A stretch of DNA of 64,000 bases from Marsupella aquatica (GCA_973895155.1 OZ316891.1:13609037-13673036), one strand, 5' to 3'. Positions 3,315 through 32,455 are shown, numbered from the stretch's first letter. A program made the numbers and translations. Notes: generated from the sequence alone by a model not told the origin.

Positions 3315-6300
3315 CTACTTGTGCTGCAAATGCAAAACCTGCAAAGTAGCACGGTGTCTTGAGTAACTCTCCAAAGGAATCACTTTGGTAAAAGCATCAG
3401 CCGGGTTGAGTTTTCCATCAATCTTGACTAGCTCAAACATTTTATCAGACACTGCTTGCCTAATAAAATGGTACCTGATTTCAATGTGCTTCACCCTACT
3501 ATCCATCACCTGGTTAATAGCTAGGTGAAGCGCACTCTAGCTGTCACAATGAAGAGCCATTTTTCCATGCTCCAATCCCATCTCAGTGACCAGCTTATCC
3601 AACCAAATTGTTTCCTTTGCTGCTTCTCCTGCTGCAACATATTCTGCTTCTGTAGTAGACTGACATACACACTTTTGCAAGGTAGATCTCCAACTTATGC
3701 ATCCTCCTCCAAGAGTAAACACATACCCAGTTGTTGACCTCCTTGTTTCCAGACAGCCTCCGTAGTCAGAATCTACATAGCCAACCAAAGATTTGGTTTT
3801 GTTTGATTTACTATCAAACAACAAACCATAATCTATTGTGCCCTTAAGATACCTGAGAATCCATTTCACAACCTCCCAATGTACCTTCCCTGGATTTGAC
3901 ATGAATCTACTCACTTTGCCCATTGCTAGGGCTAGATCAGGCCTGGTACATGTCATCAAATACATTAGACTGCCCACTGCCTTCTCATAAGGAACCTTAG
4001 TCATCAAGCCTCTCTCCACTGGATCCATGGGGCAGAAAGCCGATGATAACTTGAAATGTGGAGCCAAAGGAATACTTACTGGCTTACAATTTTCCATATT
4101 GAATCTTGCAAGTACCTTTTCAGCATACTTGCCTTGATTCAGCCACAATTGTCCAGTTTCAAAGTTCCTCGTAATCTCCATACCTAAGATCCTCTTGGCT
4201 TTCCCAAGATCCTTCATTCGGAATTCAGAACTCAATTTTGCTTTGAGTTTGTCAACCTCAGTTTGATCCTTAGCCGCAATCAACATGTCATCCACATAGA
4301 GCACTAGAATGAGCAAACCAAACACACCATTCTTGACTGATTTCGTATACACACAAGGGTCATACACCATCCTAGTGAATCCTTGTGCAAGCATGAAATC
4401 ATCAAACCGCTTGTTCCACTGTCGAGGAGCTTGCTTCAATCCATACAAGGACTTAAGCAACTTGCAAACTAAACTCTCTTGGCCCTTCTTCACAAAGCCC
4501 AGTGGTTGCCTCATGAAAATTTGTTCTTCCAAGGTGCCATAGAGAAAAGCAGTAACAACATCCATTTGATCTAACACCACATCAAAAAACACAACAAGTT
4601 GACACAAAATTTGTATCGTGGAATACTTGGCAACTGGAGAGAAGACCTCATTGTAATCCACTCCCTTCTCTTGAGTGAATCCCTTGGCAACAAGCCTTGC
4701 CTTGTATATCTTGTCTTCTCCATCTGAAGAGTTGTCCTTCAGTTTGTAAATCCACTTGCTATCCACCACTTGTTGATCACTTGGCAGTTGCACCAGCTCC
4801 CATGTTCTGTTGTCACTTAAAGATTGCAACTCCCTCTGCATCGCTGCATTCCATTCATCTTTCTCGTCTGAAATGCACGCCTCATGATAAGAAGAAGGTT
4901 CTCCTTCTTCCAAGATCAGTGCTCTGTCATCATCTTCAGGTGCAATGTCAACATCATCTAACCTTGATGAATCTGTCCATTGTCCATACCTTGTAGGAGC
5001 TCGAGTAGTACGTCTTGATTTTCTAGCTGATGATTCTGGTTGATCTTGTTCTATTGGTTGAATTTGAGGTATTCCAACAACAACTTGCTCCTCTTGTTCC
5101 AATACCGGAACCAGCTCCATTCTCGGAGCATCTCCTTCATTTATGTCATGAAAACTCTCATGACCAATCTCCCCCACAATATGGTCCAGGATAGGAGATT
5201 TACCTTTGTCAGTACGGGAAGTCTGAGCATTCTCCCCCTCCTTTGATGATCTGGATTCATTAAAGGATACATCTCTACTGACAAGCAACGTACAAGCTTC
5301 TGGATCCCATAGCCTGTAACCTTTCACACCTGGTTGATAACCAAGAAAAAGACACTTCTTGGAAGTAGAATCTAGTTTAGATCGATTCTGCTTAGGTGTG
5401 AGAGCATATGCATCACTTCCAAAGACTCTCAAAACCTGATAGTCTGCGTGCCGTCCATACCTCATTTCAAATGGCGTCTTGAAATTGATTGCACTTGAAG
5501 GAGAAAGATTTACCAAATAAGCTGCCGTATTTATAGCTTCAGCCCAAAATTCATGCGGTAAACCTGATTGGCTCAACATACTCCTCGATCGCTCCAATAG
5601 TGTTTGGTTTAGCTGCTCACAAACACCATTCTGTTGAGGAGTATAAACTGTCGTGAGATGACGAGTAATCCCTTGCTCTACATAATATAGTTCAAATTCA
5701 CTTGAACTGTACTCCCCGCCGTTATCTGATCGCAGATATCTCACCTTGGATCCAGTCTGATTCTCAATTTGGGCTTTCCACTTCTTAAAAGTGCCAAAAA
5801 CTTCAGACTTGGCATGTAGAAATGTGATCCACACATACCGTGAGTAATCATCAATGAACGTGACATAGTACAATTTTCCAGAAAATAAGGGAGTTGGGGC
5901 TGGACCTCACACATCACTATGTACATACTCAAGTATAGCTTTGGTATTGCGAGTTTCAACACCAAAGGTTCTCCTGTGCTACTTCCCAAGCACACAGTGT
6001 TCACAAAAATCTAGCTTAGTAGATTCCAAATTAGAAAGAAGTCCTTTCTTGCGAACTACTGTCAAACCCTTTTCACTCATGTGTCCCAATCTGCAGTGCC
6101 ATAACTGAGTCATCTCACCTTGAGATCTAGTTACACTAACTTCTTCACAAATCATGTTGCCCTCCAACAAATATAGATTCCTGTGCCGCTTACCCTTCAT
6201 GACAACCTTGCCTCCGGTTGACACTTGAAGAATACCATCAGCAGAACTCCACCGACATCCATTTGCTTCCAGCATTCCAAGAGAAATCAAGTTCTTTTTC

Positions 6301-6542
6301 ATGTCAGGTATATGTCTGACATTATTCACTATTCGCACAGCTCCATCAAACATCCGAATTTTCACGGATCCAATTCCAACAATTTGACAAGGATGATCAT
6401 TCCTCATCAACACAGAATCGGTTGATACTGAGTAAGAAGTAAAAAACTCTTTCATACAACAAATATGATAGGTACAGGCACAATCTAAAATCTATTCATC
6501 ACCATTGTTACTGGATGAAATGCAAAGGGCAACATCTGGACT
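3315..6542 (-). pseudogene. pol: Copia A pol (protease, GAG-pre-integrase, integrase, RT, RNase H) with in-frame stops
   Basis: ILDCAC protease, LWHCRLGH..CEHC, SDNGGEY, QQNG, YKARLVAKG, QMDVVTAFL, LYVDDML, STTEAEY, KHIEIRYHF. One frame interrupted by stops at ~6492, 5979, ~5906 and 3537. Confidence 0.93.
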
Positions 6543-7469
6543 TCACAAGATTTCATCATCAAGCAAGTCAATCATATCAACATCAGTGGCTGCGTTCGCT
6601 GATGGTTGATGAGTCTGCTTGATTCGACAGTCTCGTTTCATGTGGCCAAGCTTGTTACATTTCCAGCATATAATTGGTTTCCTTTCTAGAGATTTCTCTC
6701 TAGACCTGGATCTAGACTTAGATCGAGCCTTCTCCTTGCCTCTATTCCGTGAGGGGTACGTTTGTGAAAAGGACCTATTTTCACCAGTCATCCATTGTTG
6801 AGTCCTCCCGCGGTTCACATTCAATGCACTGCCAGATGAAGATGGTGTCTGGGCATGACCCAGTTTCTTCTGTGCATCATCTAACAACAAAGAGCTTACC
6901 ACCTCATTATATGAAATGGTTTTGAGATCTCTATACAAGAGAACCTGTTTCAAACCTTGATACGATGGGGGTAAGGAACTGAGAAGAAGCAATGCCTTAT
7001 CTTCATCTTCCATGCCCTTGCCAAGATTTGAAAAATCTACAGCTAGGCTGTCGAATTCATCCAAGTGATCTCGAAGCTTGCCTCCTTCTTTTAGCCTCAA
7101 GCTCATCAAGAGAGACTTCTTGTACAACCGATCTGAGGCATCCTCTCGGTAGTACTTCTCTCTGAGGGCCTTGAATAAGGATACGCAATCCTCGTAGTCG
7201 TCCAACTTCTTAATGATATGCGGCTTCAGATATAGCATAACCGCATTCACAACAATCACTTGCTCTTGCATCCATTTCCTCAACGAGATCTCCTCCTCAT
7301 TGCTAGACTCCTCCCGAGTCGATAGTAGATGATCTAGGCCCATAGCACAAAGAATTCCCTTAACCTGCTTCTCCCATAGCAAATAATCTGTGCGCCCATC
7401 ATATTTTTCCACCTCAAACTTGACACCTCCAAACTTGGATGCCATCGTTGTCCTCCGAACGTTCTCCAC
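6543..7469 (-). CDS. gag: Copia A Gag
   Basis: KFEVEKYDGRTDYLLW, LLLSSLPPSY (UBN2-type gag), CCHC knuckle CWKCNKLGHMKRDC. Confidence 0.92.
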   Translation of the reverse strand: MENVRRTTMASKFGGVKFEVEKYDGRTDYLLWEKQVKGILCAMGLDHLLSTREESSNEEEISLRKWMQEQVIVVNAVMLYLKPHIIKKLDDYEDCVSLFKALREKYYREDASDRLYKKSLLMSLRLKEGGKLRDHLDEFDSLAVDFSNLGKGMEDEDKALLLLSSLPPSYQGLKQVLLYRDLKTISYNEVVSSLLLDDAQKKLGHAQTPSSSGSALNVNRGRTQQWMTGENRSFSQTYPSRNRGKEKARSKSRSRSREKSLERKPIICWKCNKLGHMKRDCRIKQTHQPSANAATDVDMIDLLDDEIL

Positions 7470-7809
7470 GTGCTATTGCTGTGATGCTCCCTATATGCTT
7501 TTTCCTTCCTTCTCGTTGATTCAAATCCAAATCACGAAAAAATATTGTTTTTCGCAACTTTCCAAAAAACTTGAAACTTGTCACCGCCACTTAGCCCACC
7601 AACCTAGCAAGCCAACGCTGAAATCCAAAATTGAAATCGAGTTCCGACGAAAAACTTTTTCACATTTCGGTCGGGGTGGGTAAAACTCAAAAATTCTTCC
7701 CCGTTTTGACCACCTTGGGGAATAAGAAAAATTCCAAGTACCACCCGTCGTCGGAAATATCAGCCTATTCAATAAAAGTGTATTTTCTTTTGTTCACAAA
7801 TCAGTCTTG

Positions 7810-7878
7810 AAATGTACACTTTCATGTCCCCAAATGTACACTTTTTGGTCTCCAAATGTACACTTTATAGGCCAAATC
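7810..7878. repeat. Left subterminal repeats (C)CAAATGTACACTTT, 3 copies
   Basis: Seen directly, ~21-23 bp spacing. Confidence 0.85.
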
Positions 7879-8199
7879 ATATAAGTATTATATTAATAAA
7901 TAATACATATTATATCATTTATGATTCACAAAGAATAATAGGATAGAGATCATTATTTATGAATTCACAAAGAATAGTAGGATAGAGATCATACTTATAA
8001 AAACATTTCAGCACAAATACTCCCTTGAATATGTGTGAACAAAATGACATAACTCCAAATAGATTATAAAATAATATACAATTATCTCCAAATTTATAAT
8101 GTATTTCTTCTATCTAAGGGGCTTAACATGAGTCATATCTCTAAACAAAATGCTCCTTACAATGTGTATTTGAGCACGTGCCCCTGTCTCCTTTACTAT

Positions 8200-9176
8200 C
8201 TACCTAGTGTCACGGTTGCAAGTCCCTTTATCTTCAGGGAGCTGAAACTTGGTGGTGTTGTTCCTAATGGCTATAATCTCCCGCAAAAAGTGTCTGGGAT
8301 TTTCTCTATGTGGACCTGAATAGTCCCTTCCTACAAATGCTTTAGCAAGTGACGTGACAAGTGCATCGTCAAGTTCTGCCTCAGGACGTAAACTACATAT
8401 ACGATGCTTCACGTTCCAAGGAATCTCATTGCTGTTGAGATCCAACACACTATGCGTAAACTGTGACTTCCAAATTTTTGTTGCACATCTCTTACTAAGT
8501 TGATCATAAGTAATTTCATTTTTTACCTTGTCTCTCTTTATGTGCAATAGAGACCACAGTGGAGAGTTAAGAAGAAGATAACATCTAATGTCACTTGCAT
8601 GGGATAGTTTCTCAAGACAAGGCCAAAGAATTGTTAGAAGAAAATTATCTCCACCATTGGCATGCGTGTAGGGCACTGGAAATAGTCCGGTCATGCTTGG
8701 GTTGGCAAATGCCTTAAGGGGGGAGTCATCCACAAGGAGGGTGTTGGTTTCATCATATAGATTTCCAAATCCACTCCATACCACCCGAAAATCCTTCAGT
8801 AGCACATTTGTCTTTCCGTTTGTAATGTCACGCCTTTGAATGCCTGTGTCAAAGGCTTCCACTTGTGTGAATACAAACTTAAGTTTCAACTGCTCCTCAA
8901 CAGTGAACATCATGTTCAGCATTTTCACTGTTCGATGTACCCCAGCACATGTCCAAATTGCAACGTCAAATCGGTCAAAAACCAACTTTAGAAACTCATG
9001 GAGCCCTGGCCTTTCTGTGTACATGCGACTAATTCCATTTTTTCTATCCCAATGCACTCCACTTGGGATCACAACATTTCTGGATTTGCCCTTGCTTTGG
9101 AATTCAACTGAATCCCAAAGTATTTTGTTAAGATCCAAAATCAGCAATTTGCGCTTGATGGAACAAGGTCTTGGTT
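8200..9176 (-). CDS. FCP1/NIF (HAD-family, CTD-phosphatase-like) domain exon inside the DNA transposon
   Basis: RKLLILDLNKIL, RPGLHEFL, VAIWTCA, LLKDF, NTLLVDDSPLKA. Motif I is DLNKI, not the canonical DxDxT. No convincing ATG; strong acceptor TTGCAG| at 9178/9177. Confidence 0.82.
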
Positions 9177-11873
9177 CTGCAAGTGCAACAAATACCAATC
9201 TTAGAGATAAAACCACATTTGAAGTTTGGATAGAGATCATCTCTGTCAATCCAACACAAGTGGCCAACCACAAAGAAAATATATTTGCATACTGATCAGA
9301 TTCATTGAGAAACCGTAAAGAGGAGATGGATATTGATACTGATGCTCTAATTGTTAAACTTGAAGTATAATTATACAGACTATATTATATCAAATTGATA
9401 AGGTCACATCGCTCAATCTAGACCTTGGCTAACAATGCGATCCATATTCATCAATCAAGATATCATCACCGAGTTCTTGTTGGATCTCATAATTGACATC
9501 GGAGGTACTCTCCTCTACCCAATAAGGTGCAGACCAAACCGGAGTTATCAATCCCAATTCTCCACTTCTATAAGTTGGATCTTTCTTGTGCTTTTTGTAC
9601 GAGTCATTGTTCAAAATTGATTGAGCAGCATCCAACGCAACTTCAGTTCCTACATCGGGTCCACTTTTCCACACGTAACATTGACAATCATATTCAAGTG
9701 ACTTATATCCAGTTGATCCTACTCTCTTCCCTTTCTTTTTTGAGAGTGGAAGGATAACGGGACTTCTTGATTGTGATCGAACAAACACCAATTTGTCATC
9801 AGAAGCGGAAAAGAGTGTATTGGGACAAATTGAAGCACCTGCCTGGTTGTCAGCAGTCGTGGATGCACTTGCTTCATTCACGGGAATGTCAGCTATTTGG
9901 ATGGGCTGTGGTCTCAATCCCAATGTGTCGAGTTCATTGGACTCACCATGCCTCTCCGCACCTTGATTGAGAAGGTTGTTTGAAGAAAGTTTTTCAAAAG
10001 TATCAACTTCCATCTCTTGTCCAGACACTTGTGGATGGAGACCATCTCTATCCAAGTTATCATCATATTGGCCCTCGTTGGGGCCCATGGGGGCAGCATC
10101 TGTAATTGGTGAACTACAAGGTGCAGATCCAACAATCATATCGTCGTCCACAAGGTCAATATTTTCACCCTCGCCAACTCGGTCATCCAAATTCTTCACG
10201 TATGCCTCTGATGGCCCATCGTCTTTGACTGATTGGTCAGCTCCATCTTCTTGATCACCATCTGATTCATCCTCAATAGCAACAGCGGCAGAAGAGGGTT
10301 CCCAATGTCTAGAACTTCCACCGACATAGCGATCATAACGATCTTTGATGGTGGGAACCTTCTCACAAAGGAACGAAGCGTATGCTTCCACAAAATGTCT
10401 CTCATGTTGAGAGTCACAATAAACAAAACATTCACGTTGAGAAAAAAGGGATGCCTTCATCACTTGACCACCAGAGAAAAAGTCAAGAATCAAATCCCCC
10501 GGCTCGGACAGTGTTTGGATGATCTTTTGGATCATCCGTGTGGGTTTGGCGTGAGGATTCACCCACCCACCCCGAGCGCCGACAGTCTCAAATCGAGGTG
10601 CCATGTGCAGAAGGATTGCCGCCTCTTCTGGGGTCATCATATTTTTTAGATCTTCATGCAATGACTCCTCCTCCGCGTCCTTGGCCTTTCCCTTTCCCTT
10701 GACCTTCTCAACCACGAAATCAGTATCCTTTTCACCGTACACCCATTTTGGCTTCATTTGGTTGGGCTTGAACACTTCATCCCAACTGACGTTCTCCTCG
10801 CGAGAAATTCCGGCAAAGATAACCTCTTCTATTCCTCCCTTCCAACATGAGTCCTGAGGGTGAGGTTGATCATCTCGGTAATAACTCCCATACTCAATGT
10901 GAATACTCAGAGTTTTTGAATGTCCTAATTTACGAAGAGCGCTTAGGACATTCAGTACAAGATAACCCGGATGGACAGTTATCATCACAACAATGGTAGG
11001 ATTCCGTGGTAGCTCTACTATATATTGGAAGAGGACCAAAATCTCAACTTCAGTCCACTCTTTTTGCTGAAGTCGGCTGAAATCAACAATTGCAAGAGGG
11101 CATGTTGGAGATTGTTCTTCCAACGACTCCGGATCCACAGTCTTCATTAGGTTGTTACTAAAAAATGTGACCCACGGCTGGGTCCGAGAACTTGTCCCAC
11201 CGCCAAACTTTTGATAGTAAATATCATCTAGACGCATCACCAATGTCATTGGCAATATCTCACTCTCCTTTGTATGATTCGACTTCAACAAATTTGTCAA
11301 CCATACATCGCCAGCTGCTCTTCGGCACCTGTTCAACTCCGAATCGGGACCCAATAATGGGAGGACTTCAATCACTTTAGCCCAATCAGTATCTGCTGGG
11401 AAGTGTTTTGGATCCTTCTTGAAGTAGTAATCTCCAATAAGAGACTTCAATTTGATCAATATCTTCACCTCCTTTGCAAACTCCTCCATCGCTGGAACAT
11501 CTGACTTATTAGTCGGATCTTTCTTCAATAAAATCTGACCCAACTTCACCTTGTTCAAAATTCTGGTCAAATCTCTATTTGAGATTTCACCATCAAAACA
11601 ACGAAACATGGCGACGGTTATCGCCTTTTCGGACCTTTTGTTTCCCTATGTACCAGCCCCATCAGGAAGTTTTCCATCAATCCACATCTGGCACACTAAC
11701 CGCCATAACTCGAAAAGATCATTCTCGGCAAAAAGTAACCAGTATACATTTTTCAAGTCTTTTCTCCCCATGGTCATCCTTGCCAATGCCAGATAATCCT
11801 ACAGTCAAAAATTAGGGAGAATGTTGTAAGTTATCTACAATCAATGAGATTTGACAACACACAATCGCTTGCT

Positions 11874-12066
11874 TGGACAGAGACCATCTCCGTCCAAGCC
11901 ATAACCAAAAGTAGAATGAAGTAAAATCTACAGAATGGAAGATCTCACTCTTGGACAGAGACCATCTCCGTCCAAGCCATAACCAAAAGTAGAATGAAGT
12001 AAAATCTACAGAATAGAAGGTCTCACTCTTGGATAGAGACCATCTCCATCCAAGTCATAACCAAAA
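11874..12066. repeat. ~78-bp tandem repeat (2.5 copies) in intron 2, each carrying a palindrome variant
   Basis: TTGGACAGAGACCATCTCCGTCCAA-GCCATAACCAAAAGTAGAATGAAG... repeated. Confidence 0.9.
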
Positions 12067-13815
12067 ACATATTGAACTAAAATCAATGTAACGGACGGTC
12101 ACACTCTTGGACAAAGACAAGAAAAATGTTTCTCACCTGAAATTTTTGACTCTCTTGGGCGTTTGATTTGTTGTCCCCGTGCTTTGGCTTTCTTGGTCTT
12201 CCAGTTTCAAGGAATTGTTTTCTTGCATGAACAATTGTATCTTTGAAGCACGATTGAAACACCATCGAAGAATTGATGGCATTTGATCTCATTGAGTGCT
12301 CAACCAGTATAGCCGATGGCGTAAGGTCTGACAATAATCTAGCCTTCCTATATTTTAACTTTTTTGCCAAAACTGTGAGCTTGGCATCAGTTTCGGCCCA
12401 CTCAAGAACCCATTTGGCCGCCCTAGCAGAATGTTGCCCACTGACGGCAAGGAAAACAATCTCGCCTTTCTTCACTCCTGCAAGAAGGTCTTTGCGGTCG
12501 TTCTCCGTGCTGTCAAAATGAAGCAACTTTCTAAGTTTTGGATTGTAAGGAAGAAGGTCCGCAACGTGAGGTTCATGTCCAGGGTTTTTCACCATGGATT
12601 CGGCTATGTGCTTCACATGGGCACTGTTGAGCATCTTGTAACATAACCTTGCCGGAGCTGGATAAATTTTCTCCACTGGAATAGAAAATATTTCATTTAT
12701 CCCAAAAGTATAGTACTGCTCTATTCTTTGGAGAACATCATTCCCTTCTAAGACCTTCTTCTCCTCCGGGGCATCAAGTTTGTCTCCCTCATCCTCTGGG
12801 AGCATCTGTACGTCCGTCGGAGTTGACCGCGCAATAGTCTTGTCAGTTTTATGTTTCTTCTTTACTGGCTTCTTCTCGGGTTCCTTCGGCTGTGTCTCAA
12901 TTTTCTTGCGCTCCTTCTTCTCTCTTTGTCTTCGCTTCCCTACCACTTGTTTGGAGGCTGTCCCGGCCGTTGTTCCTACAGTCCCGGTTGTTGTCTCCTG
13001 AGATATTTTTCTAGGCTTCAGAACTTCTTTGTTAACAACTACTGGAGGCTTGTTCACCACTACTGGTGCAACATTTGTAGGCTTGTTCACCACTATTGGT
13101 GCAACACTTGTAGGCTTGGGTAATGATTCTACCCACTTTTTTGCATTATCCATTGCAAAATCCTCTGCAAATATAATTTTCTTGTCAAGGAAAACACCTG
13201 ATTCCGATGATAGGAATCCTGCCTTGTCAAGCAAATTATTTAAAATCCATGTCACCGGAAATGTATAATTCCCTTGGTGTTTATGCATATTAAGCTTCAC
13301 ATATTGAAACCCATACATGATGTCAAGTGGAAGAATCCCCTTCACTCCAAGAGTCACCTTTTGAGTTGAATATGACTTAGGGAAAAAGCCCATTGCCAAC
13401 ACGCCAAGTTCTCCAGCTGCAGACCACTCAACATTGAATTCTGAAGAATATGCCTTTGATAGTAGATGTAGTTTAACCCATCGTATCCTTTCATGGAGCT
13501 CAAGAATGACGAAAACAAACCCTCTTCCTTCAATTCCAATGAAGACTACAGATCCGAGTACAAGAGTCTCCTGATCTGCAGTTCTGACCTTTATGCACAA
13601 AATGGGATCCCGTCTCGTTGACGTGCTAAGGAAATCAAAATCAACTCTGGAGAACTCAAGGCCCCAACGAAAATCTTCTCTGCTCTGCTCCAACAAGACT
13701 CCCTCGGAGCAATCTGCGTCTGAAATCTGTGGTTTCAATGCATTTAGATAGCTCCCTGCAGTAGTCCCATCCAGGCATATTAGTTTGGAAATCTTACTTT
13801 TGTAATTGTCAAAAA

Positions 13816-14153
13816 TTGGACACGGATCATCTCTATCCTCTATTTGGACAGTGATGATCTCTGTCCAATTTGTAATAAAGATCAGCTCTGTTCGATGAGA
13901 GGATACTGACGATCGTTATTATCATCTCTATCCTCTACTTGGACAGGGATCATCTCTATCCAATTCCTAATAAAGGTCCTCAGCATCGTCTGATAGGACA
14001 TCCTCTATCGTCAGTTTGGAAATAAATGATATCTATGCAATTGGACAGGGATGATCTCCATCCATTTGGATAGAGATCATCTCTGTCCAATTCCTAATAA
14101 AGATGACTATCTTCTATTTGGACTCTACTTGGACAGGGATCATCTCTGTCCAC
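13816..14153. repeat. Array 1 of the 25-bp palindrome TTGGAYAGRGATSATCYCTRTCCAA (intron 1 of the accessory gene)
   Basis: Copies at 13816, 13844, 13939, 14041, 14066 and 14129, plus degenerate ones. Confidence 0.9.
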
Positions 14154-14504
14154 CACACAAATATTCAACTTGTTACTGGGATACTCACTTGGATTGAGCG
14201 ATTGAAAGGCTCTGGAATCCTCGAGGGCCGTCTCCACCACGTCCTCAATGGATGAGAGGTCTGTCTCCTCTGTTGGCTCACTGACGAGACACACTGGAAT
14301 AGGTCTGGATGGCTCCATCGTGTGACACGTGGCCTTATGGACACGTGGAGGATTGCAGAGCGTTAGATCTAGGGCAATTAACGTGGTGGCTATGGGGATA
14401 AACTTTAGTGCGGAGGCAAAGCGAAGGAGTGCAAAGGCGTCGGAGTGAAGGAGATTGGAAGATAATGAGGCGGAGGAGCAAGCAAAGGAGCGCAAGAGCA
14501 GGAG

Positions 14505-14625
14505 TGGAGAAGAGGAGGAGCGGACGGAGGAGGGAGGAGAGCGAGCGAGGAGGAGAGCGAGCGAGGAGGAGAGCGAGCGAGGAGGAGAGCGAGCGAGGAG
14601 GAGAGCGAGCGAGGAGCGAGGAGGG
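14505..14625. repeat. Purine-rich 16-bp repeat (GAGGAGGAGAGCGAGC)n between the divergent transposon genes
   Basis: About 5-6 tandem copies seen directly. Confidence 0.85.
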
Positions 14626-15289
14626 AATGAAGAATGAGGCCCAAGTGGGACCTCCTGCCTCCTTTACCCCCCCTCGAGGCGAGGCAAGGCACACTGAACA
14701 CGTGGGAGGCCGAGGCGAGTGGAAAACCCTACATGCACGGCTGCCCTAAAGTGCGCCGCCCGACCTAATCCACTCGCCGTTGCTTAAGGCTGATCACGCA
14801 TCGCCTTATCCATAAGGGCGATCTTCAACAACTGGTATAAGATACTTGGGGTTGTCCGGCTGGTCCTCATTTGGTATTTTCATTTCTAGATTTTTGTTCT
14901 GTTCCTCAACCAGGTCCGTTCATTACGGAGCCCCATTGAGACACTCTTGTTTTCCAGACAGAACATCTAGTTTTAATTTCTTCCACACCCCTGAAGCATT
15001 TAGTTTACCAGGTTACTGATAACTACCCCTTCAACACAGTATTTTAATCCTTGGTTTGACAACATAAACTAAATTGAGTTTTGGGTTCAAGAATCATTTC
15101 CATTACAGGTAACTTTAAACCTAATTATAGAATTGTAGCATATTCCATTGATATCCGCAAATTTAGGAATTACTATATCTAAGTTAAGGTTGAAGTGAAA
15201 AAATCCCAGCCCAACTCACGATTGGGATAATCTCAATCCAACCGTTCTTTGCTCAAACATTAAATTCGTGTGTAGAGTCAATTGTCCGT

Positions 15290-15896
15290 ACAGGGGTCAT
15301 CCCTGTTTGCTATTTGGATAGGGATCATCTCTATCTGCTGTTTGGATAGGGATGATCCCTGTCCACCGTAGAGTACTGTAGAGGACCATATGAACTATAG
15401 CACTTTATTGGATCCTCTACAGTTTGGATCCTCTGGTTGGATAATGATCCGTATTCGCCGTTTGGATCCTCTGGTTGGATAATGATCCGTATTCACTGTT
15501 TGGATGGGGATGATCCCTGTCCGCCATTTGGATAGGGATGATCCCTGTCCACCGTTTGGATAGGGATGGTCCCTGTCCGCCGTTTTGATAGGGATGATCC
15601 CTGTCTACCCTTTCAATAGGGATCCGTGTCCGCGGTCGTTCTCCGGATGATCCCTGTCCGCCGTTTGAGGTATTTGCTTGATTGGACCCCAATATGAAAA
15701 GTTTCCTTGAATCATCCCTGTCAGTTGTTTGGACAGGGAATAGACCCGATCCACCATTTGGACAGGGATCAGGCGTGTCCGCCTTTTGGACAGTGACAGA
15801 CACTATCCGCTGATTAGGCAGGGATGATCCTTGTTTGCCGTTTGGACACTGACAGACACCCTATCCGTCGTTTGGACAGGGATCATCCCTATCCGA
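15290..15896. repeat. Array 2 of the 25-bp palindrome, ~28-bp period, upstream of the transposase CDS
   Basis: Copies at ~15314, 15342, 15500, 15528, 15556, 15584, 15612, 15729, 15758, 15786, 15814, 15842 and 15872; lies before a splice acceptor TGTGCAG at 16068-16069. Confidence 0.9.
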
Positions 15897-16086
15897 CGTC
15901 TAAATTGGGATCAGGGATCTTAGGGCTAGATAGGGACTTTTTGGGGACCTATTATTTTGCTTGATGGGGATAATCCCGATATGCGCACTGTCCTTGGAGA
16001 GGGTTGACACCTATGTGCTTCCTAGTTGGGACCATTCTTAACTAATACTTTACATTTAAAATTGTGCAGGTGAATACGTTATAGGA

Positions 16087-19000
16087 ATGACCGGAATATT
16101 TTTGAGAGGAGACAATGTGATATTGACAAATGATGGTAACGATGTTGCGAGCGGGACAGTTCAAAAAGTCAACCCGCAAGATAGTGTTCAAAAGATATTG
16201 TTGAGAGAGAATCGAATGGGAGTTCTCATTGAGAAAGTTTTTGACCGAACCACAAAACTACTATTTCCGATGCCTCGGGCAGAAAACCTTTTTGATGCCA
16301 TTGATTCTTGCGTTATTTGGGATTTGTCTTGCGCATATCTATCCACGACAACAAATTCTCAAAAACGCATTAGTGTAGGTAGTTGTTCAAATAGACCCGA
16401 GAGTAATTTGGAGAAAAATCCAATTGTAGAGGAGGACTCATCGACCACTCCGAGGCAAGGGGATGAGGTTGAAATGTTCATCTTTGGGTGTTGTGTAGCC
16501 CTTGGAGTTGTTTTCAATACAAATCCAATGGAAAGATGTCACAACATTTTACTTGGTGAATCACGGATCAGTGTGAGGGTCACTGATGTCATTCATGGGA
16601 GTAGGGTTTTACCTTACAAACACAGTGGGGCTGAAACAATTGACGAGGCAAAAGACTCATGGGTTCTCTGGGACGTGGCAGATGTCCGAAGTAGAAAGAG
16701 TTTCTCAAAGAAGGATGCGGATGATGATATCAATATAGAGCGGAGTTTTGTTGTGGAGTCTCCCTCAGTTGAAATTTCTAAAACTAATTGTGACTATTTC
16801 CAACGGTCAAATTGGATGTCAGAGTTGGTCGAACTATACATCGGTTCAGATCGAACCAATAGGGTTGCCACGGGGACCATCACTGTGCCTCAAGAAACGG
16901 CGGCGGTTGACGATGAAATGCTTGGTGAGGACCATGTAGGGATTGCTGTGAAAGATGTGGTGGAATCACAATACTTTCCCAACTTCCATAGGGGAGTAAT
17001 TACTTTGGTTCGGTGGCGAATTGATTCAACAAAACTACTTGCAAATGGGAAATTTTTGTCGGACATTTTGGTTGAAGGTTCAGAGAGGATGGAGTTGGTG
17101 GATAGGGATGATCTCTATCCAAATGTAAATGATAGGGGAATGCTGCGCACAAGGCCATACAATTTCAACAAGAGGACTCATGTAGATCCGATTGAAAAGA
17201 AAAGAAGGCTATTGGAAACCAAGGCAGTTTCAAAAACAACGAAAGCTTCGATTGATGAAATTAAAAGAGAGAATTGTTGCAAGCAGAAATGTTGTCTGAC
17301 TATGCCAAGAGAAGACATAGAAGATATTCAGATAGAATTTCACGGGATGTCTAGTGAGTCAAAAACATCACACATTTTCAACCTCTTCCACTACAGAGAA
17401 GATGATGTTCGTGATAAGGGGCACCATGTTCTCAAGGGTATGGTCGTATGTAGACATGCATTTGCAATCATCCATGGCTTTAGCCACATAAAATATTATG
17501 ACTACAAAAGGAGATATGTGGAGGGCTGCAAAATTGGGTTCCATGGAAACACGGGCTCCATGAAAACAAGGTCAAATACCTTGCATGCACGAGCTCTGTT
17601 GGAGGATTTTTTGACTCGAAATGCAGAGCCCATGCCTCATATACCTTATGCTGGGGCTCATGGGACAGACTCCACTGAATATCGTCTTCCAGCATGTTAC
17701 AAGAAGCTGGAGATTTTGGAAGATGTGAGAACAAAGATGAAGGAAGAGGGGCTTCCTCCAGTTACAGAGAATACTCTGTACAAGATTTGGAGCAAATCAT
17801 TCGCAAACTTCAGTTTCCATAAAGATGGTGCATTTGCCAAGTGTACTCTTTGTTGTGAATACAAAGATAGTTTGATGCGAGAAAGAAGGAAAAAAGAACG
17901 TGCTGAAATTGAAGAAAAATGAGCGCAACATCTTTGTGAGAAAATGTCACGTAGATATGTTTACTATGCTCATCGAGTGATGGCTAAGCAACATCCAGGG
18001 GAATATCTTTGCATCATTCATGACAAGATGGATCAAGCAAAGACGTGGATTCCAAAAATGGTTAGTACTCCTAAATCGCTTTCGGGTCATGGGATGCCGC
18101 TACCTATTGCTCTGACAGGGATGTTGACCCACGGAAGGGATCTAGGAGTCATGCACACTTTAGTGTCACTGGCCTTTGGCCAGGAGATGCCGATTTCACG
18201 GTGACATCCTTGGCTAAGTGTCTTCGAGACCTTGAAGAGTACAATGGAGACAAGACAGGTGACATGTTGGATGGCCTTTATTTGGAACCTCATAGACCTT
18301 TCTTTCAAGCCCTTCTTGACTTTGATGCATTTTTTAAGGGATATTTGGAACCAAAGAGTATTCCAATGAATAGGTATATTGGTTCTGAAGATGCAGCCGA
18401 GAGTCAGACGGAGACGGTCTCCACCCAACTTGGTGAGGATCAAGGAGGGGACATGCATGGGGAACAAGGCAGTCCATCTTTCAAGCCCTTGCCAAGGCAC
18501 CTAACATTGCAAATGGATAACTCAGCAAAGGATAACAAAAACCAGACTGTCATGGCATTTTGTAGTGAGCTTGTGAGTAGAGGAGTATTTGAAACTGTTC
18601 AAATGTCTTTTCTTATGGTTGGTCATATGCACGAAGATGTTGATGCACTCTTTTCGAAGGTATCATATCAAGTTCAGCACAAGGAAGTTGCAACTCTCCT
18701 TGCTCTTATGGCAGAGGTTTGGGAATGTGAGAGCATTCATCCAGTTCCCAGATTGATACAAGAAGTTGCATCTTACAAAGAATATCTTCAAACTTTCAAC
18801 GTTAAAGATATTCAAGGTCACTCAAAACCTGTATCATTTCTTTTCTCTATGAGAGATAATGTACCAATATTTCAGTATAAGTCCCATGTAAAGCAAGCTT
18901 GGGCTCTAGTTGGTGGAAGGTGCATTAGGGCAACAGATCTGACAACAAATTCCCTTCTTTTACCTAGTGGAGAGCCCTTAGCTAAATCCATTGGAGAGAT

Positions 19001-19829
19001 ACACAAAAAATCTGAAGAGATTATCCCATTTCTTACCAAGTACCTTGATTTTTTGAGAAGAAGTTGCACTGATGAGACATCTATAGCATATAAGGAAAGA
19101 TTTCCTCTTGTGAAATATTGGGAGAGAATTGTGGAGTTGTTGACAAATGGGCTTGCACTGGAAGGGGAGGGAAGTACTCAATTTCCCTTGAAAAATGGAT
19201 TTTGGCCTAAGACTAACCATGGCACTGATTACAAGGTCAACCAACCGGATCAAAGTGGTCCTCCAAGTGAAGATGAGGAGAATGCGGAGATGACAGCTCT
19301 TCAAAATGAGGTCTTGGAAGAGATGGAAGATCAAGCGGCACCATTTGTTGGATCTCGAGCTGAGAGAGAACAAGGACGGTGGATTCCCCTACAGGATATT
19401 TGTCAAGGGAACTTTGTATTTCTTCGACCAGAGGATGATTGGGAGAATAAAAATGGTGGAGGTCATTTCTGGTTGGTGAGAGCTTTGGGTTTGGTTGACC
19501 CTAAGCATGAAGTCCCAACTACATCTCCAACAAACCCTCCTCTGCCTCAACAATATGCTCCAATGTTTCCAGTCGAATGGTGGAGGCCTAAACACTCTAA
19601 ACTTGATGTGACTGAGAGTGCACGGTATCTAAACTGCTTCATGTCCACTAAGACATGGGAGCGAGATCCAGGGTTTGGTGAGAACGCTCAACATTGGCAG
19701 TATGCAAATTCTGCAATGTATGGTTTTAAATCTGGCATGAAAGAAGAAAACATGGCGGGCAGAGGTTTGAAGATTCCTCGAAATGTTCTACAAACTATCC
19801 AAAGTTATCTCCAAAGGATGGACAAGTAG
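16087..19829 (+). pseudogene. Sola1-like DDD transposase with three N-terminal Tnp1/En/Spm-like repeats; disrupted by one stop and one frameshift
   Basis: ORFs 16087-17922, 17944-18204 and 18201-19829 join through TGA at 17920-22 and a frameshift near 18145-18150. Motifs: CCKQKC, VCRHAF, FAKCTLC..H, IIHDKMDQAK, LQMDNSAKDNKN, FLMVGHMHEDVDALFS. Confidence 0.85.
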
Positions 19830-20074
19830 ACTTAGTTGTTACTTGTGAAGCTATAATAATTATTAAATAGATAGTTACTTAGATAGTAACAAGTACCTAC
19901 TAGTTATTTACTATTTTAATAGTTTTAATGTGAGACCATGCCATTGAGTGTTAGTTATACTATCTCCTCATTTTCTAAACTTTTGATTGTTATGAATATG
20001 AATGTTTGCTTTTTTTGCATAATTAAAAATATTTTTCTATTCATTCTTTTCTTTTAAATGATTATAATAAGAGT

Positions 20075-20400
20075 TGGTACACTTTTTAGGCCAAATGTAC
20101 ACTTTGTTGCACTCAAAGCTACACTTTCTAGACCAAATGCACTTAAATGTACACTTTTTAAGCCAAATGTATGTTTTTTTCACTCAAATGTACACTTTCT
20201 AGGCCAAATGTACTCAAATATACACTTTTAAAGCCAAATGTACCTATTTTGATGTTCAAATATACACTTTTCATTGCCCAAATGTACACTCTTTAGGCCA
20301 ATTGTACACTTTTCTATCCCCAAATGTACACTTTTCATTGGCCAAATGTACACTTTTTCAAGCCCAAAAGTACACTTTTCATTGCCCAAATGTACATAAA
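20075..20400. repeat. Right subterminal repeat array CCAAATGTACACTTT, ~13 copies, ~22-bp period
   Basis: Seen directly, running up to the right TIR. Confidence 0.9.
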
Positions 20401-23368
20401 TCAAATAATAATACACTTTTAATGAATAGGCTGATAAATTCAAATCGAGTGATGCACCGCGTTGCTAGCTTCAGTGGCTACGTTCTCGCCAAAAAAAATC
20501 CAAAAAAAGTTACCGTTCAGACCTTGGAATCTTTGACTAAAGGCCGAAAAACAGCTCTCTGTTTTTTTGGAATATTCCTTGGACTGTGCAACAGGTCTTA
20601 CAGGGGGCCGTTCCCCCTGTCCAAGCGGTTAATTTGGTGGGTCACCGGGCCCGGGATGCCGCTTAACCAATGAGGAGCCTGGAAAGGATTAAAAAACCGG
20701 GCCTAAGGGGGTTTAAGCCCCTTAACACAAAAATACTGTCTTAAAAAAGGCGCCTATACGCATGACGGGCCAGGCAGTGCACAGGGGGCCGGGGAGTAAA
20801 AAACCGAGTCGAAATGGGCAGGGATGGAGCTGCGACAGCCGGGAGTTCTGGGATGTCCACGACGGCCGCGACGATCGGGACGTCTGGGACGTCCGTGCCG
20901 ACTGCGACGTCCGAGACGGCCGGGACGGCCGGGACGTCCATGATGGGAGTATTAGCGAGGAGGAGGAGGGGATCGCCGATGGGGTATTGACAGGGGTGCA
21001 AGGGTCGGGAGGGTGTGTATACACACCACAAAAAAGGCCCTATTCTAAGTTAAAATATGCACAAAAAATAAATTTGTTGGGTTACTCACACTGCCATTAT
21101 CACTTTACACCAGATAAAGACTAGTTGTCGACGGGAAATGTTACCAAATTGCACCGGCACCGTTTGCAACTCTAGCAGAGTAAAAAATTCCCGTCACGAC
21201 TCCTTCACTTCGCGTCAAGTGTCAATCTTGGACTCAAAACGACCACTGCACCGCGATCTCTCCGTTGAGCCGTTGCACTTCCCGTTTCTTCCTTTGAGTC
21301 AAACGCAACGACAAGTAACCCCACTTCAGTCAAAAGAAGACTCCATAGCCAGTCAAAAACTCAGAACGGCTCTTTTGCTTGGTACATCGCACTCACTACA
21401 CCCTCGATAGCAAACCAGCTACCAAAATAATCAGCTTTGCCCGATCTACGATTTGAGCTAAAGGTTGTGACGCCTCGCGCACCACAAAACTCACACCGTC
21501 GAGAAAATGATCTCAGTTCCCCCCCAAAAGAACCGTCGAACAAAACCGTCGAACACGAATCACAAAAAATCCAGAACGACGGAAACGTGAATTCCTCCGC
21601 ACCACGAACTCCGTTCAGAGATTTCTTTGCACCGTCAAAAAGCCCTTGCCCCGATCTATCCGTTGAGCCCAACACGTCCAAGTTCCATGCAACAGAACTC
21701 CGTCTCGGGGGTTTCACTTCCACAAAAATGGCATATCACGTGCGACGAAGGATAGGGTCATTTTATTGGTTCTAAAGGAAGACTTAAGAATTTTTGTAGA
21801 AGAATAATAGTGTATTTTAAATTCAATTTTGAGACTTATAAGAACATTAGGGTCTTTTTAATCCAATTTTTAGAATATTCCAAGAATATTCCAACTATAT
21901 AGGGGTTAGAAAATAATATTTTTTTTCTTACATTTTAGGGGGTCCGAGGCCTAAAAACGTCGCAGGCGATGGGGAGGTCCCCATATAGTGAGACCCCCAA
22001 GAACTCCGTGAAATCCACCAACTCTAACTATTGTATGCTATCAAAAGCAAATATCATCGAATATATTCTAAAAACTCGGTGTTCGTTCCCGTGGAAGAAC
22101 AAGAATGGGATGAAAAGATGTTTTAAAGTGTTTTGAGTGGTTTAAAGATGATACTCAACATCTATAAGAAAAATAGAATCTTAAACAAAACACAAAGAAT
22201 TAATAAAATAAGAACAAAGTGACATTTGTTGTACAACAGAATCTTAGAGCTTTTAGAGGTATAGTTTAGCAATATTTAACTCCGTCACCATGTCTTAAGA
22301 AAGAGCTATGGCATTATTTGAGACGTTGATAAGTCAAACATAACCTTGCTATAACTGCTCTCTAGGTTTCTATCATAAATCTATGTTTAAGAAGTGTCTA
22401 TGCTCACAAAACCCAAGATAAGTTTCGGATTGTGTATATAGTAGTGTGTCATTAAAATGCCGGCAACATGTTTCCTTCTTCAGCGATGCGCAATTCCAAA
22501 GGAAAACTAATGCACATTCAGTATACCACAATGGTACTTCAAATCCGTGAATTAAGAATGTCGCTACTTCTTAATCATATAGATTTCTATTTCTTGATTT
22601 CATGCAATACTTATCTTCCAAAGATAAGTCCTTCATGTAAATACAGAAATGGACAACAAATGTTGTAGTTTGGATTAGGCACCGACCAACGGATCTTCTA
22701 ATACATTCCACAAACTGTATTTTTATGGGTTTTACTTCTTACGGTAATTGCAACATGCATTACCATACGAAGGAGGGGTAGACTCCTAGCACAAGTAATC
22801 AAATTCCAAGGTATGCAAATCTTCCTTGCAAAATTGCATTACACGTACAAGGGACAAAACTCCAAGATGAGGAGATGCAAATAACTATCCACACTGTCTC
22901 AAAATGAGACTGGTATCACAATAAGTACATGAGATCGCCCATAGGCTAAGGAGAATGAAGAGACATGCCTCTTCATTTCCTAAGTCTAAACTAAGTAAAG
23001 TAAAAGTCAACTTTGACTAAGGGATAGTCAAATGGTCAAAGCTAAGTAAAAGTCTACAAAATAAAATACTAATCTCATACTGTAATAGGAGGAGGGTCGA
23101 CTACAAGTATGTTGAGCATAGACGACGATCGCAACGGCAAGCCCATGAACCATCCAACGCACAATAGTCGACACAAGAGATACGTGGTTCACCTCCTTGA
23201 GGCTACGTCCACGGGAACACACAAGAGAGCTTTACTGAACTCTAAGCCCGTCGGTTATACCGAGTCTCCACATGTAAGCTCTCCCTATCTCTCAAGTGGC
23301 TCCATAACAATGAGCCTTGGTTCTACCTCTCCAAGCACACATGCCTCTTATGATATAGTGTGCAACTT

Positions 23369-23550
23369 AGTTGTACCTAACCACATAGTTGTACCTAATC
23401 ACGTAGTTGTACCTAACCACATAGTTGTACCTAATCACGTAGTTGTACCTAATCACGTAGTTGTACCTAACCACATAGTTGTACCTAATCACGTAGTTGT
23501 ATCTAACCACGTAGTTGTACCAACCCACGTTGTTGTACCAACCACGTCAT
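23369..23550. repeat. 18-bp tandem repeat GTTGTACCTAAYCACRTA (~10 copies) in the Copia B LTR; second copy at ~29495-29676
   Basis: Seen directly; it produces the spurious VVPNH ORFs. Confidence 0.92.
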
Positions 23551-23773
23551 ACCTAACCTAGACGTAAGAGTAAATACCCAACAATCTTCCCCTTGACTCT
23601 GGTCTAGGGGAGAGTAATACTGCCAATGTATATGATCCCTCAGCGGGAAGTTCTGGACAGAACCAAACCGGTTTCCCTCTCTAACTAGAGCAAACCAGAA
23701 CTAAGCCGTAGCCTAATACATAGGAATGAGGAAGAGCATATATCAGTAATTACAATGAATGTTTAAGAAAACT

Positions 23774-31510: not shown

Positions 31511-32455
31511 AGCTCAAAAAATCTGAGAAGGCTCTAGAGCTCTCCTCCTAAAAACGATTAAGCATGGAGGCTCAAAAATGAAATCTCAGGGATCTAAGGT
31601 AGCTGCGCTACTATGGGAGAAGGAATGAACTGAAAAGAGATAGAAATGAAGGAGCTCTAATCAAGCGAAGCTCTCGAAATTGCAATTTCTTCAATTCCAA
31701 GAAATCAGAGAGCATCAATGACCCAATACTCCTCAACGTCTCATCAATTGCAGTTCAGAATCAGGGTGAACATTCTCTAGGTAGCTGCGCTCCTATAGCA
31801 ATTGAAATGAGCTCGAATGGTGGTCTAACAAGTGAGCACTGAGGGTCAAAGCTCGCGCCCTACTGCCGGCCGCCATGGACGTCCCTCAAAGAAAACTGGA
31901 GAAAAAGGTTTGGGCCGGCGCGGACGTCACATTAGGTCGTGGCGGGGTGGATGTCCCAGACGTCCCTACGTGGAGGCCGTCCAAGACGTCCTCGAGTTTT
32001 TCATGCGGGCCGGCGCGGATTGAGTCGGCCGTCCTTAGCAAAAAATGGGTGCCGTCCCGGCCGTCCTAGTGTAGAAGCCGTCCAAGCCAGCGCCGTCTTT
32101 GCTGTCTTTCGTGAGGAGGCCATCCCGGACGTCCCTGCAAGGAGGCCGTCCAGGCCGTCACCTCATTTTTGAAGCTCCTTTCAACTTCTTGCCGTCTTGA
32201 CGTCTAATATGTGAAAACCAGAGTAGCCTTGACGTCTTCCAATGGTATCCTTACCCATTTGAGCTTATACTAACTTAATTTTGCTTAAAGGGCCTTATAA
32301 AAACTTAAAAATTTTAAAAATTTATGGTTTTGATACTTTAACTCTCTTTTTGGAATAATCACTAATTACACTAACCGCTGGAAAAACCATCACCAACACG
32401 TCACAAAAATTTTGATCACCTCAATGTCACCTCCCAGGCTTGCTCTGATACCAAT

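Follow-up and report, generated by a model that had tools for sequence, protein, structure and literature searches.

In the giant Plavaka (EnSpm) transposons of Bostrychia, the accessory gene PAG3 encodes a ParB-like protein, which is proposed to bind and modify its own element (10.1101/2025.02.11.637652). Self-binding and self-modification were also proposed for the Ectocarpus element Sola1-1_Ec32, whose gene combines a ParB-like part with an N4C/N6A methyltransferase, in a paper whose main text contains no occurrence of "palindrom" (PMC12477816). In the relevant passages of both algal genome papers, the binding or marking of their own transposons by ParB-like accessory proteins stands at the level of a proposal. 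That a ParB gene and inverted repeats work as a pair has already been proposed (red-algal Plavaka), and ParB-MTase cargo is already known (Ectocarpus Sola1). In the Arabidopsis VANC/VANDAL anti-silencing system, VANC is described as binding family-specific motifs that accumulate as tandem repeats in introns and non-coding parts (PMC5735166). In the accounts of KorB-OB of plasmid RK2 and of ParB-parS/Noc, a protein encoded by the element has an operator of its own and regulates near as well as distant promoters (PMC11790492, PMC13495010). The Marchantia enzyme MpDN4MT1 is reported as a eukaryotic 4mC methyltransferase of bacterial origin, active as a host enzyme and with TSPPY kept (10.1101/2021.02.12.428880). 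No land-plant report of the 25-bp dyad described here was found in the literature searched, which did not extend to Repbase or to subscription papers, nor to Iyer et al. 2011 and Bao et al. 2009.

Here, we analyzed a stretch of Marsupella aquatica DNA of 64,000 nucleotides (the window), which carries a Sola-like transposon. Using a symmetric weight matrix at a threshold of 8 bits, we located 22 copies of a 25-bp dyad between positions 9226 and 18428, all within the element. With a probability of about 60%, these dyads are self-recognition sites for the ParB/KorB-like protein of the element, which would act by binding and not by methylation.

A Sola-like transposon

The element (Table 1) belongs to a high-copy family, and the copy in the window is decayed. 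The members of the TIR pair agree at 25 of the 26 terminal bases, and the empty sites are seen in contigs of sets X2, X3 and X4, which read straight across the insertion point. A 4-bp AWWT target site duplication is given for Sola1 and Sola2, and the AAAT duplication found here fits this AT-rich Sola-type rule. We take DUF7869 to be the Sola transposase domain; the transposase class assigned here rests on the Pfam match to DUF7869, and no literature pairing DUF7869 with a transposase was found. Both the transposase and the accessory gene are defective in this copy: the transposase reading frame is interrupted by a stop at 17920 and again by a frameshift near 18150, and exon 3 of the accessory gene contains a premature TGA at 11646-11648. 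Judging by their position, the subterminal AAATGTACACTTT repeats are likely transposase sites, and the gap separating the divergent genes is likely a two-way promoter. Motif I of the NIF/FCP1-like frame reads DLNKIL. In a deletion derivative, 7866 is joined to 20185; it retains the ends of the element and has lost all dyads.

Table 1. Features of the transposon and positions of the dyads in the window.
Feature	Position	Strand	Remarks
Left AAAT target site duplication	7755-7758		4 bp
Whole cut-and-paste DNA transposon, Sola-like	7759-20435		12,677 bp; TIRs, AAAT duplication, empty sites
Left TIR	7759-7792	+
Left subterminal 22-bp repeats	7810-7866		core AAATGTACACTTT; motif distinct from the dyad
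Two dyad half-sites in a 39-bp tandem repeat	7939-7989 (7939, 7978)	+	14.6 bits each
NIF/FCP1-like phosphatase-domain reading frame	8200-9176	-	Pfam PF03031, E=2e-15
Single dyad, non-coding gap between MTase-like exon and NIF frame	9226-9250		31.3 bits
Exon 3	9429-11798	-	helical region, beta-class methyltransferase-like domain, acidic linker, C-terminal domain
Dyad in coding linker of exon 3	10031-10055		peptide DRDGLHP
Intron 2, phase 0	11799-12136	-	junction bridged by P0001 and P0016
Three dyads of intron 2	11873, 11951, 12029		in 78-bp repeat units
Exon 2	12137-13755	-	N-terminal domain, basic linker, ParB/Srx-fold domain with box GQHSxxA
Intron 1 (predicted)	13756-14188	-	homology begins near 13755
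Six dyads of predicted intron 1	13816, 13844, 13939, 14041, 14066, 14129
Predicted exon 1 of accessory gene	14189-14321	-	splice signals
Gap separating divergent genes	14322-15199		GA-rich repeats, without dyad
Nine dyads and half-sites, 28-bp array upstream of transposase frame	15314-15896
DUF7869 (Sola-like DDE-type) transposase	16071-19829	+	Pfam PF25273, E=4.5e-39
Dyad in transposase coding sequence	17098-17122		peptide VDRDDLYP
Weak dyad, transposase linker	18404-18428		16.8 bits
Right subterminal repeats	20077-20396		core AAATGTACACTTT
Right TIR	20402-20435	-
Right AAAT target site duplication	20436-20439		4 bp

The accessory gene and its protein

Intron 2 of the accessory gene is well supported: many homologous frames end at its donor, and its position matches in the relative L001. 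The 3′ end of intron 1 is placed by homology, while its donor and exon 1 were taken from splice signals, and no homolog of the predicted exon 1 was found. Splice-like signals mark the non-coding gap before the NIF (FCP1) frame as a putative intron; on signals of this kind, the 28-bp array possibly lies within another one, from about 15110 to 16069.

The structural model of the ParB/Srx-fold domain (pLDDT 87) had Noc/ParB proteins as its nine best Foldseek matches, with E values of 0.003-0.03 and none below 0.001. The eight best VIA matches all had the ParB/Srx fold (Z 4.7-7.3), with PadC, KorB and pNOB8 ParB first (Z 7.2-7.3). Sequence searches did not retrieve ParB: in Pfam, 2 of 41 members matched DndB at E 0.04, and the PDB sequences gave low-complexity matches only. 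The protein encoded by the element combines the ParB/KorB fold with a helical region and a methyltransferase-like domain of the beta class. In its ParB box, Ser replaces the Arg of the CTP-binding motif GxxRxxA, and among 115 proteins the 65 pattern matches comprised 59 with Ser and 0 with Arg. In the homolog P0016, KorB 52-150 aligns with the ParB part and KorB 151-252 with the helical bundle that follows. The latter match (Z 4.0, rmsd 3.7, 95 aligned) ranks 7th and is within noise, and Foldseek gave no match for the P0016 helical model. The modeled helical region, which is encoded across intron 2, may be the DNA-binding domain.

The SAM-binding motif I region of the methyltransferase-like domain scored 26.8 bits with PF01555 (cut-off 26.7). 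It matched M.RsrI with E=3e-7 over 46 profile positions, DFFSGG being one residue short of the RsrI loop. The catalytic motif IV, (D/N/S)PP(Y/F/W), was not found: translated exon 3 lacks any PP dipeptide. In the window as well as in P0001-P0004 and L001, the presumed site of motif IV, judged by its position within the domain, is occupied by DFSR, DFGR or DFAR. The first-pass annotation had named a ParB-MTase protein; the ParB/Srx fold agrees with this name, but the CTP arginine and the PP-type catalytic motif are both absent.

No ParA-like Pfam match was obtained for the five long frames of the element. The search for a ParB-MTase-NIF fusion among proteins of 568-2000 aa returned none, with two matches to the NIF part alone, and counts as weak evidence. 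A metagenome scan yielded one locus from 174 pattern matches, and the ParB exon matched nothing in a scan of viral sequences. In the Atlas, fungal clusters and DUF3723 clusters appeared at 0.93-0.94, which is a lead only.

Distribution of the dyad

The weight matrix was derived from the 20 best copies, and the copies score 16.6-39.8 bits. The other 51 kb of the window, which takes in host gene sequence, contains no full dyad, and its top score is -0.9 bits. All 22 copies being inside, the motif is confined to the element within the window, as the first-pass annotation had noted. The consensus given there had 7 matches at ≤3 mismatches, compared with a mean of 0.00 and a maximum of 0 in 100 shuffles. 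Its clusters were recovered, with coordinates shifted by 1-2 bases in places, and so were its half-sites near the left end. It had reported a single coding copy, at ~17099; there are three in all, those at 10031 and 18404 having been missed, and all three sit in coding linkers. The hairpin at the 18404 dyad was not above shuffles. No full dyad was found in the terminal regions of the element.

There are 19 dyads in 3,819 bp of non-coding sequence and 3 in 8,858 bp of coding sequence, an excess with P=7e-8 on the assumption of independent copies, which tandem copies are not; counted by locus, the ratio is 4 non-coding to 3 coding. Dyads flanking the gap between the divergent genes make up 15/22. 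The longest stretch without the motif is 2,007 bp (P=0.0014 under uniform placement, 0.015 with non-coding clusters held fixed), and this P rises to 0.44 once the weak 18404 copy is left out.

Fixed and free positions

The conserved unit is the half-site TTGGAYRGRGAY with its fixed core. Among 40 half-sites, G4 and A5 occur in 40, G10 and A11 in 39 and G8 in 38, an apparent invariance that is inflated, as the matrix seed set was picked by likeness to the consensus and tandem copies are not independent. Two positions are free: position 6 is C (21) or T (19), and position 9 is G (20), A (19) or T (1). C6 and G8 represent both cytosines of one CHG site, and C6>T was observed in 19/40 vs. 0/40 for G8>A. 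This asymmetry indicates that decay of methylated C alone is insufficient, and it was ruled out as the sole cause.

The description of the motif as a perfect dyad applies to its consensus alone, since no copy is perfect and the best ones pair at 11/12 positions. Compensatory changes between half-sites were looked for and not found (position 6, P=1.0). Arm symmetry (171/210 pairs) was not above the within-cluster permutation mean of 170.9, and an arm association at position 9 (P=0.044) was set aside, as it follows clusters. The GATC-containing core attributed to the motif occurs in only 15/22 copies and is absent from 7/22, including all three of intron 2; a Dam/GATC target was rejected on this ground.

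Between clusters, identity is 0.77 for dyads, 0.31 for the 20-bp flanks and 0.30 for random sequence. The motif is kept apart from the repeat unit, as had been suggested, and its variation is position-specific. At four isolated copies no flanking direct repeat was seen. A MITE, a satellite or a known RNA family as the source of the dyad was rejected, there being no duplications of its own and no copy outside the element in the window; the first-pass annotation had itself raised the MITE or satellite fragment as a doubt. Rfam gave five matches, all far under the gathering score. Exact dyad scans elsewhere returned two single sites in viral contigs and two in prokaryote genomes, with no second copy close by, and these matches were treated as chance.

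Among family contigs, one coding copy has five variable sites, 0 of them among the 12 core positions (P=0.024). The core (0/12) differs from the next 35 bases, 13 of which vary (Fisher P=0.021), but not significantly from the whole 201-bp stretch (21/176, P=0.37). Of the five variable sites, four alter the amino acid, all towards letters found in other copies; synonymous sites vary at 0/4 in the core vs. 8/40 outside, the core sites being too few. The support from this comparison is modest. The right arm is broken at the orthologous place in two divergent contigs, one each in X6 and X1 (loose ends). Unit numbers also vary among family contigs, with joints from 11975 to 12128/12132 and extra 28-bp tandem dyads in loose ends. 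As for conservation in related subfamilies, two equal-depth joints in X4 point to a subfamily that retains the dyad with both flanks replaced, whereas the orthologous intron 2 of L001 (34% identity) has no dyad of a matching or other obvious kind, so that the doubt raised in the first-pass annotation about such conservation is borne out in part.

Function of the dyads and alternative explanations

As self-recognition sites, the dyads would be read by the accessory ParB/KorB-like protein, which would contact both half-sites in dimeric form and thereby recognize its own family. Tandem duplication may have multiplied the sites where non-coding space permitted, and single sites may have been tolerated within coding linkers. 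Because the catalytic motif is absent, the protein likely acts by binding or recruiting rather than methylating, and because the box arginine is absent, it likely does not slide as a CTP clamp. This could explain why the distance from one site to the next does not exceed about 2 kb. The least certain step is the last one: the bound protein could regulate the two-way promoter of the element or shield the element from silencing as VANC does. The earlier term "parS-like" fits if it is taken to mean a dyad that a ParB-family protein would read; it does not fit if it is taken to mean a partition site driven by CTP or a target of methylation.

An unlikely explanation, although it fits several observations, is neutral repeat turnover. 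An ancestral imperfect palindrome would have been spread by slippage, template switching and arm-to-arm conversion, and the Y/R positions would just be two ancestral arm variants reshuffled. Tandem arrays hold most copies, their unit numbers vary among family contigs, copy 13939 has both variant arms, an arm is broken in the two divergent contigs, and L001 is without the motif. However, single copies lie kilobases apart in unrelated flanks without flanking duplication, none of the copies has become a perfect palindrome by correction, and the symmetry of the arms does not exceed permutation. The free positions accept variants that change amino acids, while none of the 12 core positions varies.

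We consider it quite unlikely that the transposase itself binds the dyads as internal sites, for synapsis or self-activation. AtMu1 is a precedent, as its transposase alone is described as binding cognate motifs and activating its family, yet AtMu1 binding is reported to peak at the TIRs (10.64898/2026.08.24.746577). Nine copies are located just upstream of the transposase frame, but the element ends bear a different repeated motif and no full dyad. Moreover, the deletion derivative suggests, by its sequence, that the dyads are dispensable for being moved.

Hairpins in RNA or single-stranded DNA, with a role in splicing, as small-RNA decoys or as cruciforms, are improbable. Folding gave z ≤ -2.1 in 6/8 copies, and the putative transcript strand has 21 G-U pairs compared with 11 C-A mismatches; nevertheless, there is no compensatory change, the loop has just 3 nt, no Rfam family reaches the gathering score, and conservation falls on specific bases and not on pairing. 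Sites of a host transcription or chromatin factor exploited by the element have a similarly slight chance of being correct: dyads do cluster either side of the likely two-way promoter, but plant factors typically recognize sites shorter than this two-arm one of 25 bp, and host gene sequence is included in the 51 kb without a full dyad.

Beyond self-recognition by the accessory protein, it is possible, though doubtful, that land-plant Sola-like transposons converted a bacterial ParB/operator module into a self-marking system, with CTP sliding lost and a dead methyltransferase domain. Such a module would bind a family-specific 25-bp dyad that tiles the element at ≤2 kb and overrides protein sequence in intron-less coding linkers, and it would shield or regulate its own family only, as a sequence-specific anti-silencing system that arose independently of VANC and TnpA. 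For the published proposal that ParB-like accessory proteins bind and mark their own transposons, the element provides a well-defined candidate site, in which fixed positions are told apart from free ones, a region that may bind DNA and, in its subterminal repeats, an internal control motif. If this proposal is true, land-plant transposons use a prokaryotic partition-type module to recognize themselves, and the loss of both catalytic signatures would make the published "self-methylation" part not applicable to the present branch.

Comparison with known systems

MpDN4MT1 of Marchantia, as described, resembles the element in that a land plant carries an amino-methyltransferase-type domain of the beta class. 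Unlike it, the domain found here has no TSPPY-like motif and is transposon-borne.

The likeness to VANC, on the published description, lies in an element-encoded accessory protein and family-specific motifs in its own non-coding parts, with binding predicted in our case. VANC motifs are 8-9 bp long and are not described as dyads in that account, in which coding probes without them were tested (PMC5735166). Anti-silencing was shown there for VANC (PMC5735166) and could apply to the present element by analogy; family specificity of the dyad, a VANC-type feature, rests on one relative, L001.

Sola1-1_Ec32 is similar in being a Sola element with a ParB-MTase gene on the strand opposite the transposase, and it differs as a giant brown-algal element of 21.5 kb (PMC12477816). 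Likened by description, the element studied here has an MTase-like domain without the PP-type motif and an extra NIF frame.

Like the element studied here, Plavaka is described as a DNA transposon in which an accessory gene for a ParB-like protein occurs together with inverted repeats in tandem arrays. Plavaka belongs to EnSpm, its ParB is fused to a 2OG-oxygenase, its methylase is a separate gene, and its arrays adjoin PAG3. In contrast, the present element is Sola-like, its ParB is fused to an MTase-like domain, and its dyads extend across introns and into coding linkers.

Compared with KorB/ParB, as these are described, Ser replaces the GxxRxxA arginine, an MTase-like domain replaces the C-terminal part, and the site has 25 bp instead of 16 bp. 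In common with them, the element has an N-terminal domain of the ParB fold with a helical domain after it, and a repeated palindromic site of its own as candidate operator.

The dyad and the transposon that carries it

The 25-bp palindrome described in the first-pass annotation is real. Its consensus gave 7 matches in the window at ≤3 mismatches and none in 100 shuffles. A symmetric weight matrix built on the 20 best copies detected 22 full dyads, all within 9226-18428; the rest of the window reached at most -0.9 bits, which agrees with the earlier statement that the motif is not seen elsewhere there. In an unbiased scan of the 64 kb, the dyad was the sole repeated family among near-perfect palindromes with 10-bp arms. 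The description "perfect dyad" applies to the consensus alone, the best copies being paired at 11 of 12 positions. GATC is found in 15 of the 22 copies and is missing from the others. Instead of the single coding copy first reported, there are three, at 10031, 17098 and 18404. Counted by copies the dyads are strongly non-coding (19/22), and counted by loci there are four non-coding to three coding. The observation was thus confirmed with corrections, and its interpretation is partly supported. In X3 and X4, two of the public sequencing runs, loose-end contigs at window 17096-17129 contain extra dyads in a 28-bp register that are absent from the window copy, where 17128-17152 looks like a decayed second dyad.

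The terminal inverted repeats (TIRs) of the transposon match at 25 of 26 bases. We call the element Sola-like since the AAAT on both its flanks fits the 4-bp AWWT duplication described for Sola1 and Sola2 (PMC3845634, PMC3627910). Contigs from three public runs join across the element, and these empty sites differ in sequence. These differences and the high depth at both flanks (~7600-7758 and from 20436 onward) indicate insertion into another high-copy repeat. Four public runs covered every one of the element's 30 bins, and variants were numerous. The transposase carries a DUF7869 domain, and the accessory gene lies on the opposite strand. The window copy is dead: its frames are interrupted by stops at 11646 and at 17920, and there is a frameshift close to 18150. 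The other features are collected in the table.

Features of the element and of the surrounding window
Feature	Coordinates	Strand	Remarks
Cut-and-paste transposon, 12,677 bp	7759-20435		TIRs, flanking AAAT
NIF/FCP1-like phosphatase frame	8200-9176	-	motif I DLNKIL instead of DxDxT
Accessory gene, intron 2	11799-12136		spanned by P0001 and P0016; shared donor; L001 intron at same place
Accessory gene, exon 2	12137-13755	-	N-terminal half: conserved domain before basic linker and ParB domain, common to many homologs; no Pfam match
Transposase frame start	16060-17100	+	~350 aa, apparent three small beta-rich repeats (VAxG...LGE..V.V); no Pfam match
Copia-type retrotransposon remnants (two)	3537-7472; 23774-28090	-	
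Repeats resembling LTRs of second Copia remnant	23073-23561; 29229-29687		18-bp tandem array in each
529-aa frame	29924-31513		no Pfam match
Likely exon of host histidine-phosphatase (phosphoglycerate mutase-like) gene	55510-56019	-	PF00300, E=9e-19
Other tandem arrays, periods 19-133 bp	46884-47384; 60306-60488; 63626-63822		unrelated to dyad

Accessory gene product

Intron 2 is secure, because the homologous proteins P0001 and P0016 cross it, many metagenome frames end at its donor, and the intron of L001, a relative with 34% identity, has the same position. In the case of intron 1, support was obtained at the acceptor only. Among named homologs the closest belong to two liverworts, Calypogeia fissa (44%) and Riccia sorocarpa, which makes a land plant the likely host; two R. 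sorocarpa proteins (P0067 and P0099) hold ParB and methyltransferase-like parts in a single chain. Calypogeia-type homologs keep the peptide GRDRLE in a variable linker (P0001 at 613, P0003 at 360, P0005 at 297), and in the same linker of the window the coding dyad 10031-10055 encodes DRDGLHP. Judged from the peptides, GRDRLE could be a related dyad visible through the protein.

For exon 2, a confident fold was predicted in the second half (pLDDT 87). The nine best Foldseek matches of this half were Noc and ParB, with E values of 0.003-0.03 and none below 0.001, and the best VIA matches were PadC, KorB and pNOB8 ParB (Z 7.2-7.3). The ParB signature GxxRxxA (PMC13495010) reads GQHSxxA here; among 65 pattern matches, the Arg position was occupied by Ser in 59 and by Arg in none. 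In the predicted structure of P0016, a helical bundle follows the ParB part. KorB 151-252 aligns colinearly with this bundle, but only at Z 4.0 and rank 7, and Foldseek returned no matches for the P0016 model; the resemblance of the modelled bundle to KorB is at most suggestive. Exon 3 includes a beta-class amino-methyltransferase motif I region and lacks the PP-type catalytic motif, the likely position of which reads DFSR, DFGR or DFAR in the window, P0001-P0004 and L001. Exon 3 homologs end where the window's frame stops, so the NIF/FCP1-like frame may constitute a third gene of its own. An in-frame ATG sits within the 9226 dyad.

Conservation and possible role of the dyad

Over 40 half-sites, G4 and A5 are invariant, G10 and A11 vary once and G8 twice, and positions 6 and 9 are split about evenly. 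Position C6 and the C across from G8 belong to a single CHG site; even so, C6>T occurs in 19/40 and G8>A in 0/40. Between clusters, flank identity was 0.31 against 0.30 for random pairs (n=164), whereas the dyads reached 0.77; 11 flank pairs exceeded the random 99th percentile, all of them between intron 1 and the 5' array. In 17020-17220, family contigs from four runs showed 26 variable sites (27 variant rows). The coding dyad contains five of these and has no variation at its 12 core positions (P=0.024); four of the five alter the amino acid. The core also differs from the next 35 bases (0/12 vs 13/35 variable, P=0.021). In X4, a pair of joints with matching depth, read from two table rows, suggests a subfamily that retained the dyad with both flanks replaced.

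Core-specific conservation, unrelated flanks and the variation among family contigs speak for selection on the motif. Against it are the comparison of the core with the whole 17020-17220 stretch, which is not significant (P=0.37), the right arm broken at the orthologous place in single contigs of X6 and X1, and the non-independence of tandem copies. Synonymous core sites in the coding dyad number only four. Two reshuffled ancestral arm variants could also mimic the position-specific conservation. Spacing speaks for selection, in that no stretch free of the motif exceeds 2,007 bp (P=0.0014, or 0.015 with non-coding clusters fixed), but the effect is lost once the weak 18404 copy is dropped (P=0.44). 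Neutral repeat turnover is an improbable source of the dyads, though the first of the alternatives.

Slightly less probable is that the dyads are transposase sites. A different repeat with the core AAATGTACACTTT is present at both element ends and is the natural candidate for transposase binding. A deletion derivative in contigs of X3 and X4 joins 7866 to 20185, keeping the end repeats and losing all dyads; it is a short non-autonomous form with both ends present. Compensatory changes between half-sites, for which the first-pass annotation proposed a test, were not found: the arms do not covary (171/210 pairs, permutation P=0.08-0.53), so that bases rather than pairing are kept, and a hairpin function is very unlikely. 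We regard binding of a host factor as equally improbable.

We favour the dyad as the putative self-recognition site of the element's ParB/KorB-like protein (probability about 0.6). The lack of such a dyad in the 109-bp intron 2 of L001 fits family-specific sites, but L001 is a single sequence and contained no alternative dyad either. Fifteen of the 22 dyads lie beside the gap that separates the two divergent genes and so point to control of the likely promoter there; the remaining dyads would extend coverage along the element. KorB R117A, unable to bind CTP, is described as repressing from a nearby operator and not from a distant one (PMC11790492). By speculative extension, Ser at the CTP-arginine position might make many sites necessary. 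The effect may be anti-silencing, repression or help in transposition; by analogy only, a VANC-like role is favoured (PMC5735166).

Comparison with known systems

The concept of a ParB protein acting on its own element is already in print as a hypothesis. In Ectocarpus, Sola1-1_Ec32 has a gene for ParB and an N4C/N6A methyltransferase opposite the transposase, and the product was proposed to bind the element that encodes it and to modify it (PMC12477816). The same was proposed for the ParB-like protein of Bostrychia Plavaka, the gene of which adjoins tandem inverted-repeat arrays (10.1101/2025.02.11.637652). Compared with the text descriptions of these two algal systems, the present element differs in its likely land-plant host, in a site of 25 bp whose core is resolved, in dyads located inside coding sequence, and in the loss of both catalytic signatures, that of ParB and that of the methyltransferase.
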